Shown here piece after piece: positions 9,441 to 14,595 of a stretch of DNA of 64,000 nt. The DNA comes from Minisyncoccia bacterium. Its GTDB lineage: Bacteria > Patescibacteriota > Minisyncoccia > JACQLN01. Numbering within the stretch: the first letter of the stretch is position 1; each line of letters opens with the position of its first letter. Under the pieces are notes generated by a model that saw only the letters and a program-made list of their open reading frames with translations, did not search any database and was not told the origin of the DNA. Position numbers and translations under genes: made by a program. The stretch is taken from positions 645 to 64,644 of the forward strand of contig JBASTM010000008.1 of the NCBI GenBank assembly GCA_049274895.1, written 5' to 3'.

Positions 9441-9572
9441 GCAGTATTCTTGAATTAGTCCGAACGCACTTTTCCGAAAAAATTCCCCCGCGAAAATTCG
9501 GAAAGGCGGCGGAGCCGCACCGCTGACAATTTCAAGTTTTTCCCTGCCTGCCGGCAGGCAGGTTTGGCGGCA
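9441..9572. repeat. GC-rich noncoding element, copy 1 (shares ends with 58109-58370) carrying the palindrome CCTGCCTGCCGGCAGGCAGG
   Basis: 31-nt 5' block GCAGTATTCTTGAATTAGTCCGAACGCACTT and 3' block ACAA.TTTTCCCTGCC…GTTTGGCGGC are shared with the second copy; perfect 20-nt palindrome at 9542-9562. Confidence 0.6.
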
Positions 9573-9618
9573 TTCAATTCAAAGATTCGCGAAGCGAATA
9601 TAAAATGAAAATTTCAAA

Positions 9619-10275
9619 TTACAATTCTTTTCTCTCCTTTGCGTTTTTGACCACCAATTCGGCTAGTCGAAGTGTGGTTTCAAACGTCTCTTCTTTTCCC
9701 GTAATTTCCTTTCTCGCCTCAACCTCTGCACGATCTTGGGCAATAATTTCTTCTACAGTCATACCTTCTTTGATTTTTGGGACGATCCGCTCAAAATATC
9801 TTTTAACTCTCCCGTTACTAAGAACCGCTTGTATTAATTCCAGTTTTTCTGCTTCTGAAATATCTTTTTCCATTCGTTCACCATACGCACGTTTTGCCGA
9901 TTCTGTAACTCCAACAAAATCAGATACCGAGCTATCTACCTCTGGATTTTCGGGGGCAGATAATTCCTTTTCCGCGTTTTTATTATCAAAAATTGCAACT
10001 AGCTCTTTTTCATCGGCAACACCAGCCCGAGAGAACACAAGAGCATCATATTTTGGGTCATCAGAAAATCCAGTTTCTATTAAAGAGGCGTTTTTTCTTT
10101 TTTCCTCTGCCTGCTCTGATGAAATTCTACCTGCTTTTTCCATCGCAGAAAGCTCGTCATTCAATGCCCCAAGAAAAATGGCTCTTGGGTCTTCTACAAT
10201 TTTCTCTTTTTCTTCCGGCTTTGGAGTTTCCTCCTGCGGTGGAACTGGATTATTAAAAGGATTTTCTATGCTCAT
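9619..10275 (-). CDS. Hypothetical acidic protein
   Basis: 218-aa ORF with normal composition, preceded by the conserved 130-nt tRNA-distal module; the overlapping + strand ORF 9605-10543 is S-rich and likely spurious. Confidence 0.5.
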   Translation of the reverse strand: MSIENPFNNPVPPQEETPKPEEKEKIVEDPRAIFLGALNDELSAMEKAGRISSEQAEEKRKNASLIETGFSDDPKYDALVFSRAGVADEKELVAIFDNKNAEKELSAPENPEVDSSVSDFVGVTESAKRAYGERMEKDISEAEKLELIQAVLSNGRVKRYFERIVPKIKEGMTVEEIIAQDRAEVEARKEITGKEETFETTLRLAELVVKNAKERKEL

Positions 10276-10299
10276 ATATTTTTATTGGTTAATTATTAA

Positions 10300-10438
10300 A
10301 AAGAATTTTATGATTTTGATTAAAAATTTTTCTTCCCCCAAAATGCGAAATCGTGAATTCGTTTTTACCCCCAAAATTGAATACCAATTAGTCGCCGAGC
10401 GAAGCGAGGCGAACCAAAACTCTTTGACTTTTCCTGTC
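10300..10438 (-). repeat. Conserved ~130-nt module between tRNA-Arg and the downstream gene (copy 1 of 2)
   Basis: About 90% identical to 59340-59468 located after tRNA-Leu(GAG); contains GTCGCCGAGCGAAGCGAGGCGAACC and GGGGGAAGAAAAATTTTTAATC just before the ATG of the downstream gene. Confidence 0.7.
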
Positions 10439-10514
10439 TGGTGTCCCTGGCAGGAATTGAACCTGCGATCTCTTCCTCCGCAGGGAAGCGCTCTATCCGC
10501 TGAGCTACAGGGAC
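10439..10514 (-). tRNA. tRNA-Arg (anticodon GCG) with encoded CCA
   Basis: Minus-strand reading GTCCCTG…D-arm GCTCAGCGGATAGAGC, anticodon stem-loop CTTCC-CTGCGGA-GGAAG, T-arm GCAGG-TTCAATT-CCTGC and ACCA. Confidence 0.7.
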
Positions 10515-10522
10515 AAAATTGT

Positions 10523-11218
10523 TTATGTAATTTTGTCTTTTAATTGTCTGGCTATTTCTAAGAGTTCTTTTCTAATGTCACTATCCAAGTAAGATATGAA
10601 ACAGATTCCCATAAAATTTTTTCTAAACCTTCTCGTCTTACTGCGTTTCTTAAAATATATTTTTCCGAATTGATTCTGTGGAACCTCCAGTAGATTTGAC
10701 CAGAATTTTTTTGAGGAGGAGGTATTGTGGTAATGATGCAAATGCAATCTTATTCTAAATTTATCGTTGTTTATTTTATAACACCTTCTTAATAACGATA
10801 TGTAAAACAGTGCTAAATTTGGATCTGTATTAACAAATTTTAGTCCGCTTACCCCTTTATACTTTGCACCCTCGGCCCAATATAGCATTACCAGCAAAGA
10901 CTTCCAAAACCCAGGGTCTCTCAAGGGATATCTAGATATTTCAGGAGTAATTTTGTCTCTTAGAATTTTTTCCCGCTTTTTCCGTTCCGCTATCTTTACC
11001 GTTTTTGCTAGTGTCCTTATTCTAGCAAGGTGTAAAAGTTGGGCCTTTCTATCAAATACTCCAGGATACTTTTCCCCCAGCCAGCCCGATAGGGTACTTT
11101 TAGGTATATCTAATTTGTCGGTTATATCTTTGTAAGATTTGCCCTTTGAGCGGAGTTTTTCTGCTTTTCTCCTGGTATCCACACCGTAAACCTTTCCTCG
11201 CATAGTAGTTACGAACAA
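10523..11218 (-). CDS. HTH-domain protein with a possible degenerate LAGLIDADG-like nuclease domain
   Basis: N-terminal HTH (KSYKDITDKLDIPKSTLSGWL); central LLVMLYWAEGAKYKG…NTDPNLALFYISLL resembles a degenerate LAGLIDADG helix; ends 9 nt from tRNA-Arg. Confidence 0.3.
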   Translation of the reverse strand: MFVTTMRGKVYGVDTRRKAEKLRSKGKSYKDITDKLDIPKSTLSGWLGEKYPGVFDRKAQLLHLARIRTLAKTVKIAERKKREKILRDKITPEISRYPLRDPGFWKSLLVMLYWAEGAKYKGVSGLKFVNTDPNLALFYISLLRRCYKINNDKFRIRLHLHHYHNTSSSKKFWSNLLEVPQNQFGKIYFKKRSKTRRFRKNFMGICFISYLDSDIRKELLEIARQLKDKIT

Positions 11219-11265
11219 GATGATTATTTACTAAATCTTACCATCTGTAGTTCGTATACGCAAGG

Positions 11266-11721
11266 TTAAAATTTTAAGAACCTAGCTAAGGCGTCTATGG
11301 TTGATTCGCTGTGTTCCTTTTCGGGAACCGTTGGCGAAATCATATTCCGAACTGCTTCGGAGTCTATGCCGGCCAGCGGCACTTCCAGATGCAGATTAAG
11401 TATGTTTTTACCCTCCAAGCTTAAAACATTACCACTCTCGCGTTCAAAAATCCAGAACGATTTGAAGTTGTTTAAGGCGTGTTCCTTGTCGCCGATTTTT
11501 AGGGTTTCCGAATCTAAAACAAAAATATACTCGCGGGGTTCTTTTAAGGCGTAGATGTTTAAGACTCCGGCGGCCAGAATTATAAAAACAGCCAAAAGAT
11601 AGCTTTTCAAAATTACGGCCACCGCCACCACAGCCGCGGCCAGAATCCAAAGCGAAACAAACCAGTTGGTCTGCCGTTCGGGTTGTTCAAATTCGTACGC
11701 CTGCCATTCCAGCTTATCCAT
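11266..11721 (-). CDS. Hypothetical membrane-anchored protein
   Basis: 151 aa with an N-terminal pair of TM helices and a soluble C-terminal domain. Confidence 0.45.
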   Translation of the reverse strand: MDKLEWQAYEFEQPERQTNWFVSLWILAAAVVAVAVILKSYLLAVFIILAAGVLNIYALKEPREYIFVLDSETLKIGDKEHALNNFKSFWIFERESGNVLSLEGKNILNLHLEVPLAGIDSEAVRNMISPTVPEKEHSESTIDALARFLKF

Positions 11722-11887
11722 GGTTTTTCGAGGATTTTATAGGGTTTTTTGTCTACTTATTGTAGGTTTATTATAGATATTGATTTTGTCCGTATTGTGT
11801 GTATACTTAACAATGTCTTTTGGTTCTACCATGAACTGAAAGGGTATTACATCCAAGGGCCACTCTCCTCGCGGAGGGTGGTTTCTT

Positions 11888-12457
11888 TTATTGCCCATCT
11901 TTTGTTCGATGCCGAAGTTCCTTACCCCAAACATCTGTCTCTAGGTTCAGTACGTCAAAATATCCATTTCCGCCCGTTCTCAATTCTTGCGAGATATTAT
12001 TTTTTGAGGAGAAAATAAAAACTTGTTTGTTTCCTTTTTTCAAATAGGTTACAAGTGCTAGAAAATCCGAATCTCCTGTAAATAAAACGGCGGTGTCATA
12101 TTTTGATGCATGATGGATTGCGTCGATTGTTATTTCTACATCCATATTTCCTTTCTCTTGAATAGATTCGCCGTGTTCGTCCGCGATAGAGATCCTTTTT
12201 AGTTCTTTTTTCCGTACTATAAATTTAAGTCCTTTTTTTAGGTAGGTCAAAAATTTATGCTTTCCATCAAGACTGTATTTTCTCGTACCATCAGCGGGAT
12301 ATGCCGTGTAATAAAATACTTGAATTGAAGTAGCGTTTAATTTGTTTTTAATATAGCTGATCAATTTTTCGTAATCTAAAAACTTCCCTTTGGCTTTTTG
12401 TGCGGCCCATAGATTGGAAGCATCAATAAAAACATAGATTTTCTTACTCCGGAACAT
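11888..12457 (-). CDS. NYN-domain (LabA/PIN-like) putative RNase
   Basis: KIYVFIDASNLW…VLFTGDSDFLALV is characteristic of NYN/DUF88; the start is set at MFRSKK because the upstream extension overlaps tRNA-flank repeats. Confidence 0.6.
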   Translation of the reverse strand: MFRSKKIYVFIDASNLWAAQKAKGKFLDYEKLISYIKNKLNATSIQVFYYTAYPADGTRKYSLDGKHKFLTYLKKGLKFIVRKKELKRISIADEHGESIQEKGNMDVEITIDAIHHASKYDTAVLFTGDSDFLALVTYLKKGNKQVFIFSSKNNISQELRTGGNGYFDVLNLETDVWGKELRHRTKDGQ

Positions 12458-12505
12458 ATTTTTTAGGTTCGTAACTTGGATACAGTCAATATGTCTATAA
12501 ACTTG

Positions 12506-12632
12506 GCGGCGGGGGTGAGATTCCTTTCGCTCCGACTCAAGTCGGGTCGCTGCGCGCACTCGCTCCCTTCTCATCTCACTCGCACGCCAAGACTTTGGCG
12601 TGCTCCCCCATCCTCGCTCACTTTGTTCGCTG
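12506..12632 (-). repeat. Structured insert downstream of tRNA-Ser(TGA) ending in an 18-nt direct copy of the tRNA 3' end
   Basis: GCGGCGGGGGTGAGATTC at 12632-12649 is repeated at 12506-12523; the spacer shares ACAAAGTGAGC / GAGATGAGAAGGG / GGAGCGAAAG motifs with the tRNA-Glu flank. Confidence 0.6.
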
Positions 12633-12719
12633 CGGCGGGGGTGAGATTCGAACTCACGAGGGGCTTTCACCCCTAACAGTTTTCAGGACTGTCCTATTCA
12701 ACCGCTCTAGCACCCCGCC
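12633..12719 (-). tRNA. tRNA-Ser (anticodon TGA), type II
   Basis: GGCGGGG acceptor, anticodon stem-loop ACAGT-CCTGAAA-ACTGT, long variable arm AGGGGTGAAAGCCCCTC and T-arm GTGAG-TTCGAAT-CTCAC. Confidence 0.8.
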
Positions 12720-12833
12720 TTAATTTCTCGGCAAAGCCTCGGTCAAAAATATGAGCTATCGCGTTTGCCCGGGTTGCTTTTGCAACCCGTCTAACGTTAT
12801 CCCATAACGTTAGACCCGCTCTAGCACCCCGCC
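12720..12833 (-). repeat. Upstream flank of tRNA-Ser(TGA): conserved tRNA promoter motif plus insert ending in a 17-nt copy of the tRNA 5' end
   Basis: TTTTTGACCGAGGCTTTGCCGAGAAA also precedes tRNA-Leu(GAG); CGCTCTAGCACCCCGCC at 12703-12719 is repeated at 12817-12833; hairpins GTCTAACGTTATgggATAACGTTAGAC and CGGGTTGCaaaaGCAACCCG. Confidence 0.6.
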
Positions 12834-12900
12834 GTTGGTTGAAAATTATCACAAAAGCTGGATTTATTCAATATAATCTGGTAATTTATAAAAAGATAAA

Positions 12901-13025
12901 GGAGGCGTGGCCGAGTGGGCTGGGGGCTGTGGGACAGCGCCCAGCGGGTTGCAAAAGCAACCCGGGAGTCCGAGGCCACACATATTTTTGATTGAGTCCC
13001 GCCTTTGGGCGGGACGAGAAAATAC
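12901..13025 (+). repeat. Upstream flank of tRNA-Ser(GCT) beginning with an 18-nt direct copy of the tRNA 5' end
   Basis: GGAGGCGTGGCCGAGTGG at 12901-12918 and 13026-13043; the spacer contains the same CGGGTTGCAAAAGCAACCCG hairpin as the tRNA-Ser(TGA) upstream insert, in opposite orientation. Confidence 0.6.
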
Positions 13026-13113
13026 GGAGGCGTGGCCGAGTGGCTTAAGGCAGCAGTTTGCTAAACTGCGGGGGTCTAAAAAGCCCCACGAAGGTTCGAA
13101 TCCTTCCGCCTCC
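13026..13113 (+). tRNA. tRNA-Ser (anticodon GCT), type II
   Basis: Acceptor GGAGGCG/CGCCTCC, anticodon stem-loop GCAGT-TTGCTAA-ACTGC, long variable arm and T-arm GAAGG-TTCGAAT-CCTTC. Confidence 0.8.
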
Positions 13114-13164
13114 GCATTGACAACTTTTTATCGGCATGACCCGAGTGCCTATAAAAAAGTTGAA

Positions 13165-13198
13165 ACAAAAAAGAGTGGTTAATACCGCTCTTTTTTGT
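13165..13198. terminator. Bidirectional terminator hairpin
   Basis: AAAAAGAGTGGTtaatACCGCTCTTTTTT between tRNA-Ser (+) and the recombinase fragment (-). Confidence 0.5.
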
Positions 13199-13203
13199 TT
13201 TCT

Positions 13204-14112
13204 CTACTCTTCAATCATCGTTATTTTTTTATCTTTGTAGTTTAGTCTGCTTCGCAGATTTGCGAGCAGTTCACGCTTGTCTGATACGCTACCTTCTTTC
13301 AGTAGATATCTAGCATATTGGCGGATGTTCACATCATTTTCTTCGACCAGTGCTTTTCCGATCTGACCATTCACGATCTTCTGTAACTTATTGAACCGCC
13401 TAATTTCATCCTCGAGTTTCTGTCTCATGCCAAGCTCATTGATATTTACCTTATCCATAATTTTTAGAAACTCATCAATAAGTTCTTCCTCACGAATATA
13501 TTTGTTTTTGCAGTTGCGATCTCTTGCCCGACTGCATCTGTAGTAGATGTAGTGTGCCGACGTGCCATCTTTGAGTGGTTTCCATTTTTCCTCAGCTGAT
13601 ATGCCGGACTGGCAGTACCCGCAGGTGAATAATTTTGTGAAGGCGAATTCTTTATTCTCCCTGACTATTTGATCGCGCTTCAGTTGTGCTTGAGCTTTTT
13701 CAAACAACTCTTGGGTGATAAGCGGTTGATGTTTACCTTGATACCAATTACCACCCTTTCTTGGGTATTCAAACAGCCCGTAATAGAAGGGGTTATCAAG
13801 TATGCGATAAACCCCGGAGAGTGTGAGTGGCTTATTACCTCTGGTATGGAAATTCAGTTCAAACTTGAGCCAGTTGTAAATCTTTCTGCCCGAGTAATGT
13901 TCATATGCGACCTTCTCGAAAATTTTCTTTACAGTCGGCGCTCGGAGCGAATCAATGGCAATCTGACATTTCTTATCCATGAGTTTCTGATTGAGATAGC
14001 CAAGTGGTGCCACTCCCGGCCATAAACCCATCTCCACCCTTGTTCGCAATCCTCTTTTAACATTAATGCCTCGATTGTCGTTTTCGAGCTTCGCTTGTGA
14101 GCCTAAAATCAT
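13204..14112 (-). pseudogene. Large serine recombinase fragment lacking the N-terminal resolvase catalytic domain
   Basis: Begins at the alphaE-helix-like QAKLENDNRGINVKRGL, then the recombinase domain (GLWPGVAPLGY) and zinc ribbon (CGYCQ…YYRCSRARDRNC) with a coiled-coil tail; there is no room upstream for the Ser-nucleophile domain because the Nudix gene abuts it. Confidence 0.55.
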
Positions 14113-14157
14113 CAGTAAAAATTTTTCATTAGGATTGTTAGAGAATTTTTGTTACCT

Positions 14158-14595
14158 TTATAGTTTTTTTACTGCATTTTTATAACCTTCTCTCATATTC
14201 AGATCATCAATTTCAGATATCGGAACCCATTTGTATTCAATATGTTCGTCGCTATGATTGATTTCTTTTTCGTTGGAAAAACATTCGTATACTAAAACTA
14301 TAAATTGATATTCCATATCCTCTTTTTGCGAAGTAAAAGTCCAAACATCAACTATCCTGCCAACTTCTAAGTCATTCCATCCAAGTTCCTCTCTAAACTC
14401 TCTTTTTAGGGTTTCTGCCGGATTTTCACCAAAATCAATTTTACCTCCTGGGAGTTCCCAAACGCCCTTATGATCTTTAACGAAAAGAATTTCATCACCT
14501 CTTTTTAATATTCCTTTTACAGTTGTTTTTTGTGTTTTTGAGTTCATAAAATTATATTTGACATAGTAACCCGCTTTTGTTATTTTGTAAACCAT
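14158..14595 (-). CDS. Nudix hydrolase
   Basis: Nudix box GGKIDFGENPAETLKREFREELG. Confidence 0.7.
   Translation of the reverse strand: MVYKITKAGYYVKYNFMNSKTQKTTVKGILKRGDEILFVKDHKGVWELPGGKIDFGENPAETLKREFREELGWNDLEVGRIVDVWTFTSQKEDMEYQFIVLVYECFSNEKEINHSDEHIEYKWVPISEIDDLNMREGYKNAVKKL

Follow-up and report, generated by a model that had tools for sequence, protein, structure and literature searches.

A tRNA-adjacent gene family of Patescibacteria with a LAGLIDADG-like domain, and its possible mobility with its tRNA partners

Do three closely spaced genes between two tRNA genes form a single mobile unit, or did they arrive separately? This question is raised by a 64,000-nt stretch of a Minisyncoccia (Parcubacteria/Patescibacteria) metagenome-assembled genome, here called the window. 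Between its tRNA-Arg and tRNA-Ser(TGA) genes lie three co-oriented minus-strand genes, which encode an NYN/PIN-like nuclease (NYN), a 151-amino acid (aa) membrane protein (p151) and a 231-aa protein (p231). A first-pass annotation, made from the sequence alone, had placed these genes correctly and taken them for a mobile defence or addiction module. This interpretation is partly supported: its domain assignments were right, while the module and the defence role were wrong. The interval is a composite, in which a resident p151 lies between two independently acquired low-GC genes (NYN and p231), because relatives keep p151 alone and the composition of the genes differs. The gene for p231 belongs to a large uncharacterised family that shows strict tRNA adjacency in the members examined and has branches dedicated to different tRNAs. 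We read it, with a probability of about 0.5, as a free-standing selfish gene of the homing endonuclease type that moves with its tRNA. The features of p231 and its partner are as follows.

10439-10514, minus strand: tRNA-Arg(GCG), CCA encoded (ARAGORN; Rfam tRNA, 72.6 bits)
10523-11218, minus strand: p231, an open reading frame (ORF) with a helix-turn-helix (HTH) and a LAGLIDADG-like domain, 231 aa from TTG 11218, GC content 0.36 (ORF listing)
11078-11182, minus strand: N-terminal three-helix HTH of p231, residues ~13-47, with the invariant motif PKSTLSxW
10529-10915, minus strand: C-terminal LAGLIDADG-like alpha/beta domain of p231, residues ~102-230
10862-10885, minus strand: motif LYWAEGAK of p231, including Glu116-Gly117

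The protein is identical to the NCBI entry 'hypothetical protein WAP55_01360'. Its true start is probably the ATG at 11203 ('MRG...'), which would give a product of 226 aa; we propose this because the homologues start at this downstream codon. More than 200 homologues were found, all named 'hypothetical' and all from Patescibacteria, and 435 GTDB species genomes contain a p231 relative. A hidden Markov model scan of 1.84 billion cluster representatives (clusters at 50% identity) retrieved 2,370 clusters of the family at E <= 1e-10 and 4,399 at E <= 1e-3. The length was 215-240 aa in nearly all of the 150 clusters listed. Five p231-family loci (L030, L063, L064, L069 and L070; loci are cited by such numbers throughout) bear the labels Gammaproteobacteria, Pseudomonadales or Spirochaetia. 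Mislabelling of these bins is probable, since the tRNA and gene context of the five loci resembles that of the Patescibacteria loci. The literature found on LAGLIDADG proteins, tRNA genes and Patescibacteria or the candidate phyla radiation (CPR) consisted of papers on tRNA and rRNA introns and did not describe the p231 family, nor is the family mentioned in the searched passages of a survey of tRNA introns in Patescibacteria (PMC13011429). PADLOC and PHROGs held no family for p231 or p151.

The AlphaFold model of p231 (mean predicted local distance difference test score, pLDDT, of 90) consists of an N-terminal HTH, a linker helix of ~40 residues and a C-terminal LAGLIDADG-like domain. An N-terminal HTH and a degenerate LAGLIDADG-like segment had been called in the first pass, and both calls hold. 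The N-terminal domain is a transposase-type HTH. The first helix of the C-terminal domain is terminated by LYWAEGxK, in which Y113, E116 and G117 are invariant across 42 p231 orthologues; the Y, E, G and K of the motif are also invariant in all tRNA-specific paralogues and in one phage copy. Glu116-Gly117 lie where LAGLIDADG enzymes have their catalytic acidic residue and glycine. An hhalign comparison aligned the p231 motif in register with GLYVAEGDK, the second motif of I-DmoI, in a weak match (P 0.03); I-CreI gave no match. No Pfam or NCBIfam model covers the C-terminal domain. We consider it probable that this domain is LAGLIDADG-like, and use this label because Foldseek found no LAGLIDADG protein, the Pfam LAGLIDADG models hardly respond to the family, and the first beta-hairpin is vestigial in the model. 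As modelled, the protein is not an ordinary transcription factor, and its partner is the downstream tRNA and not the neighbouring protein genes.

This partnership extends across the family. We fetched 80 genomic loci with a p231 relative from the 435 species genomes, and a metagenome scan seeded with distant p231 paralogues gave 80 further loci, 72 of them with sequence past the ORF. A family member lies directly 5' of a tRNA gene in all 152 of these loci (80 genomic and 72 metagenomic). By chance, such adjacency would be expected in <1% of cases per locus, assuming approximately one tRNA per 20 kb (our estimate). In the window, tRNA-Arg(GCG) begins 8 nt past the p231 stop codon, and in 80/80 genomic loci the tRNA starts no more than 50 nt from, or before, the first in-frame stop. 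The tRNAs at the genomic loci are distributed as follows.

Arg(GCG): 71 loci, of which 7 have the tRNA on the opposite strand
Arg(CCG): 2 loci
Ala(GGC): 4 loci
Val(GAC): 1 locus
Trp(CCA): 1 locus
Ile(UAU): 1 locus

All 72 metagenome loci have a same-strand tRNA, which is Ala(GGC) in 36, Val(GAC) in 22 and Arg(GCG) in 14. Gene and tRNA are often fused. In 91 of 141 loci the ORF meets its first in-frame stop within the tRNA, and the distance from stop to tRNA never exceeds 50 nt. In 38 loci the stop consists of U8-A9-G10 of the tRNA (TAG). In L083, for example, aaa-atG-GGC-CTG-TAG (tRNA nucleotides 1-10 in capitals) encodes the end of the ORF, ...K-M-G-L-stop.

A neighbour-joining tree of 142 members revealed that the Ala(GGC) clade (34 members) and the Val(GAC) clade (23 members) are monophyletic, and that the Arg(CCG) pair nests within the Arg(GCG) clades. 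There is probably also a subfamily dedicated to Gly(GCC): a further paralogue stands shortly before tRNA-Gly(GCC) in L148 (5784-6546) and probably in L102 (3948-4666). In L117 (940-2532) a Val-type ORF, tRNA-Val(GAC), an Ala-type ORF and tRNA-Ala(GGC) follow each other in tandem. Two family members, each before its own tRNA, occur on several contigs (L117, L102, L148 and L070, the last at 1838-2530), and one further paralogue precedes a tRNA that ARAGORN called Ser(ACT). No p231 paralogue was found beside the other ten tRNAs of the window.

The tRNAs linked to p231 are ordinary, intron-less and 72-76 nt long. All four main target tRNAs have G34 anticodons and read four-codon boxes. This bias might reflect their dispensability beside U34 isoacceptors, or related target sequences. 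The CGY-reading tRNA-Arg in these Patescibacteria has the anticodon GCG, not the usual bacterial ACG that requires TadA editing. Two very different types of tRNA-Arg allele occur in related genomes (loci L006-L093 and the window), GTAGCTCAG...GGATAGAGCGC and GTCGTTCAAC...GGATAGGACGC.

Close relatives allow the history of p231 to be separated from that of its surroundings. The closest relatives of p151 are found in L089-L091 (84-91% identical), followed by L092-L093 at 68%. These five loci keep p151, both tRNA-Ser genes, tRNA-Arg and RecG, but are without NYN and p231. Their gene order is a serine recombinase (L089 only), tRNA-Ser(TGA), tRNA-Ser(GCT), p151, a spacer of 12-38 nt, tRNA-Arg(GCG), other genes and RecG. 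In blastn comparisons with L089, L091 and L092, p151, RecG and the downstream genes were 70-85% conserved, and a block of ~2 kb (~9223-11290) had no counterpart; it contains p231, tRNA-Arg, a 218-aa ORF and part of a 95-aa ORF. The best non-self match of p231 is 65% identical, although an orthologue in L089-L091 would be expected near 84-91%. Composition gives a similar division. The GC content of p151 (0.45, or 0.52 at third codon positions, GC3) and RecG (0.49) is native to the window (0.467), while that of NYN (0.35) and p231 (0.36) is atypical; an AT content as high as that of p231 is seen in only 2% of 700-nt windows.

The tRNA follows the gene. The tRNA-Arg(GCG) of the window is 91% identical to that of L006, which carries p231, and 66-68% identical to those of the close relatives that lack it. 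L006 has the closest p231 (63% aa identity), yet its p151 is only 59% identical, compared to 84% for L089. The tRNA-Ser(TGA) genes of the p231-less close relatives are 95-97% identical to that of the window. These sequence comparisons show that p231 and its tRNA allele travel together. In L065 and L076, p151 is followed directly by tRNA-Arg(GCG), and the ORF lies one tRNA further on, before Arg(CCG). Broken or truncated copies of the family were found in L067, L077 and L053.

One copy lies outside cellular genomes. The viral contig IMGVR_UViG_3300017963_000190 (L086), at 260 kb the size of a jumbo phage, encodes a full-length member of 234 aa at 4983-5687, with the motif AALYWAEGDK. This gene is located in a tRNA cluster, 44 nt after tRNA-Val(TAC), and is not fused to a downstream tRNA. 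In the scan of viral contigs L086 was the one contig with a full-length homologue, and L088 appears to overlap the same stretch. With a single viral contig, phages are therefore not the main reservoir of the family.

Considering these results, we favour homing as the explanation for p231. The HTH and the LAGLIDADG-like domain would recognise the cognate tRNA locus in genomes without the gene, and the protein would cut this gene-less locus. Repair from a carrier genome would then copy the gene together with the adjacent tRNA allele, that is, intron-less homing with co-conversion, as for SegB of phage T4. The ORF and the tRNA would be expressed as a co-transcript, since the ORF extends as far as the tRNA or into it. 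Cleavage by RNase P at tRNA +1 may then strip the message of its final codons and stop codon, and so act as a brake on expression. If homing is correct, it bears on the evolution of codon-reading capacity in minimal genomes, and the family would be a source of compact nucleases naturally specific for conserved tRNA sequences. As a tentative extension, these loci may represent undescribed mobile 'tRNA cassettes', in which a G34 tRNA (Arg-GCG, Ala-GGC, Val-GAC or Gly-GCC) is fused to its own HTH-LAGLIDADG endonuclease gene, is spread by homing and replaces resident tRNA alleles. A selfish element would then exchange some of the tRNAs of reduced genomes horizontally, and, with the stop codon located within the tRNA, endonuclease translation would be linked to processing by RNase P.

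Several results weigh against homing. Foldseek did not retrieve LAGLIDADG proteins from the PDB with the p231 model, and PDB searches with p231 alone and with the family profile gave HTH-type or chance matches only. Pfam LAGLIDADG_1, _2 and _3 did not match p231; LAGLIDADG_3 was seen in 3/42 members, with a best E of 0.039, below the threshold. In the model the domain begins with a beta-hairpin that is very short or vestigial, whereas true homing enzymes have long DNA-reading hairpins. In seven loci the tRNA lies on the opposite strand, and co-transcription is thus not universal. In a comparison that included five non-carrier alleles, no tRNA-Arg position separates carrier from non-carrier alleles, as possible immunity changes would. 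Lastly, p231 is about as conserved as RecG (mean pairwise identity of 55% vs 53%, r = 0.79, 13 loci). Together with the rarity of decayed copies, this conservation resembles purifying selection on a host gene more than the fate of a typical short-lived selfish gene. The correlation with the divergence of p151 (r = 0.33) is uninformative because p151 is short and fast-evolving.

Some of these points suit a protein that has been domesticated. WhiA, a bacterial transcription factor, descends from a LAGLIDADG endonuclease; it has two LAGLIDADG domains and a C-terminal HTH, and no catalytic acidic residues. In a similar way p231 might be a LAGLIDADG-derived DNA-binding protein that serves as a regulator or architectural factor of its own tRNA locus, without nuclease-driven mobility, and its patchiness would reflect gene loss. 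The constant length of ~225 aa, the short hairpin, the few decayed copies and the correlated, RecG-level conservation agree with this, as does the position of the gene immediately upstream of the tRNA on the same strand in 145/152 loci, which suits operon-like coupling. Conversely, the acidic residue that was lost in WhiA is invariant in all p231 subfamilies, and a dedicated regulator for each single tRNA is hard to rationalise in genomes of <1 Mb. Close relatives keep the tRNA without the gene, the composition of p231 is foreign, the tRNA allele goes with the gene and not with the genome, and a phage carries a copy. We consider domestication the main rival of homing, though rather unlikely. 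If true, p231 would join WhiA as a homing enzyme that became a host factor, here tied to individual tRNAs.

A role on RNA appears improbable. LAGLIDADG proteins have repeatedly become RNA-binding maturases, and p231 could be a maturase- or chaperone-like protein that binds the co-transcribed tRNA precursor and affects its processing or stability. The tRNA-specific subfamilies would fit, as would the overlap of ORF and tRNA, from which it would follow that one transcript must carry both. The linked tRNAs are however intron-less and of ordinary size, the HTH is of a DNA-binding, transposase type, the tRNA is antisense in seven loci, and relatives without the gene keep an apparently normal tRNA.

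Homing of p231 with its tRNA, the reading we prefer, concerns only one of the three genes. The other features of the locus are given below.

11266-11721, minus strand: p151, 151-aa membrane protein with two transmembrane (TM) helices and a PH-like domain
11888-12457, minus strand: NYN gene, LabA/DUF88-type, 189 aa, GC content 0.35 (Pfam PF01936)
12506-12523, minus strand: 18-nt exact copy of the tRNA-Ser(TGA) 3' end (repeat search and script)
12632-12719, minus strand: tRNA-Ser(TGA), upstream boundary of the claimed island (ARAGORN)
13026-13115: tRNA-Ser(GCT), antisense to the other listed genes
13204-14112, minus strand: large serine recombinase, 5'-truncated (Pfam PF07508 and PF13408)
9619-10275, minus strand: 218-aa orphan ORF, GC3 0.30
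14158-14595, minus strand: 145-aa ORF, GC content 0.32, NUDIX-like as read from the sequence

Read along the minus strand, the order is truncated recombinase, tRNA-Ser(GCT) (antisense), tRNA-Ser(TGA), NYN, p151, p231, tRNA-Arg(GCG), the 218-aa ORF, the 95-aa ORF and RecG. Rfam at a permissive threshold found nothing beyond the three tRNAs in 9000-14500. A promoter and terminator scan of 10300-12800 gave a site count not above that of shuffled sequence, and so says nothing on transcription units. The 218-aa ORF had no Pfam or NCBIfam match and no homologue in any related locus, and a BLASTP comparison with a 318-aa protein of L089 was blank. The low-GC 218-aa and 145-aa ORFs add to the impression of a variable region.

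The AlphaFold model of p151 (pLDDT 74) shows two N-terminal TM helices, at residues 18-37 and 41-58, as the first-pass annotation had predicted. They are followed by a PH-like beta-sandwich capped by a helix, and UniRef gives the label 'DUF5673 domain' (P0122). A p151 homologue lies within 5 kb of the p231 relative in 49/80 loci, and directly upstream of it in ~30. Since p151 is kept in relatives without p231 or NYN and has a native composition, it is a resident gene, not cargo.

The nuclease domain call is equally sound: NYN matches Pfam PF01936 with 82 bits (cut-off 24.2, E 7.9e-23). It has more than 2,200 homologues, which the source databases name 'LabA/DUF88 family', and is 72-78% identical across Doudnabacteria, Komeilibacteria, Paceibacterota and other Patescibacteria lineages. 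This high identity could be due to frequent transfer or to strong constraint. Elsewhere its contexts are unrelated (L174 and L175): one genome has it close to a large serine recombinase, another between the subunits of a restriction-modification cluster. A NYN gene lies within 5 kb of a p231 relative in only 1/80 loci (L018, 27% identity). In the relatives tRNA-Ser(GCT) abuts the start codon of p151, with 0 nt between them (1839 and 1840 in L089), and NYN was inserted at this same tRNA-Ser/p151 junction. NYN is an independent insertion at this locus, without a functional link to its two neighbours.

The tRNA-Ser end of the interval is arranged differently in the closest relatives. Against L089 (1586-1839), L091 (189-441) and L092 (5608-5968), the whole divergent tRNA-Ser(TGA)/tRNA-Ser(GCT) pair (12632-13115 in the window) shows an inverted orientation with respect to p151. 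Exact 18-nt copies of the tRNA-Ser termini are present (12506-12523 = 12632-12649; 12702-12719 = 12816-12833; 12901-12918 = 13026-13043). They lie 114-126 nt from the tRNA-Ser genes, and each pair brackets ~100-110 nt. The copy at 12506-12523 is located 126 nt downstream of tRNA-Ser(TGA) and upstream of NYN, and this copy of the 3' end was absent from L089, L091 and L092 by script. The copy upstream of tRNA-Ser(GCT) was also found in L092 (5764 and 5879), and L089 and L091 contained no copies. Two of the ~100-nt modules share the hairpin GGGTTGCAAAAGCAACCC, in opposite orientations. In appearance the repeats resemble either miniature integrations in which the tRNA end is restored or scars of recombination. 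We rejected them as island boundaries: each pair brackets ~100 nt, and none encloses the three genes.

The recombinase of the window has Recombinase and Zn-ribbon domains but no Resolvase (catalytic N-terminal) domain, and its NCBIfam CcrB-like match starts at profile position 128. At the equivalent position L089 (1-1512) has a recombinase ORF, with near-perfect inverted repeats of ~43 nt, read by eye from the sequence, on either side of it at 1-48 and ~1465-1512. These features point to a small mobile element with its own recombinase, now decayed in the window, and the truncated recombinase marks the region as a recombination hot spot. A tRNA-integrated genomic island was also considered and rejected, as the recombinase is 5'-truncated and the tRNA-end repeats do not flank cargo.

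How much of the proposed three-gene module remains? The repeat modules noted at the tRNA-Ser genes exist, though they do not enclose the three genes, and the suspicion of something mobile holds, though not for a three-gene unit. A co-occurrence check set beforehand failed, as did the expectation that the trio would be absent together at this tRNA pair in relatives: L089-L093 lack NYN and p231 and keep p151. Although the genes are co-oriented, closely spaced and tRNA-flanked, NYN matches generic PADLOC models (NYN and HEC-09, and only these), and a recombinase remnant and tRNA-end copies lie nearby, a mobile defence or addiction module is highly improbable, given that the trio was not seen together at any other locus, p151 is the only one of the three in the closest relatives, only p151 has a native composition, the repeats bracket no genes, PADLOC matches neither p231 nor p151, and NYN keeps unrelated company in other genomes.

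The three proteins relate differently to known systems. As an anti-phage defence system the locus found no counterpart in PADLOC, with p231 and p151 unmatched and the trio not co-occurring elsewhere. The 189-aa protein is a clear member of the LabA/DUF88 NYN proteins (PF01936), with nothing unusual about it. No NCBIfam or Pfam WhiA match places p231 in the WhiA family. Unlike WhiA, p231 has one LAGLIDADG-like domain, an N-terminal HTH and an invariant Glu, and it is dispensable in close relatives. With LAGLIDADG enzymes (I-DmoI, I-CreI and the enzymes of CPR rRNA introns) it shares a helix that ends in an invariant acidic residue followed by Gly, a size that fits a single-domain, presumably dimeric enzyme, and sporadic presence and absence. 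Unlike these enzymes, it is unrecognised by Pfam models, has a very short first beta-hairpin and an extra N-terminal HTH with a ~40-residue helix, and is free-standing beside a tRNA, not inside a group I intron or intein.

SegB of phage T4 is a free-standing homing endonuclease in a phage tRNA gene cluster, and drives the preferential inheritance of the tRNA region (PMC2330249). The tRNA region of a related genome is cut, and the endonuclease gene and flanking tRNA genes are co-inherited (PMC2330249). Like SegB, p231 is free-standing among tRNA genes and not in an intron or intein, its gene co-varies with the tRNA allele, and one homologue lies in a phage tRNA cluster. Where SegB is a GIY-YIG enzyme encoded by a phage, p231 has a LAGLIDADG-like domain and an HTH, its nuclease role is predicted, and its gene is chromosomal in Patescibacteria. 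It further differs from SegB in that the ORF is joined to the 5' edge of a single specific tRNA, often with a common stop codon, and that the family has radiated in a tRNA-specific manner.

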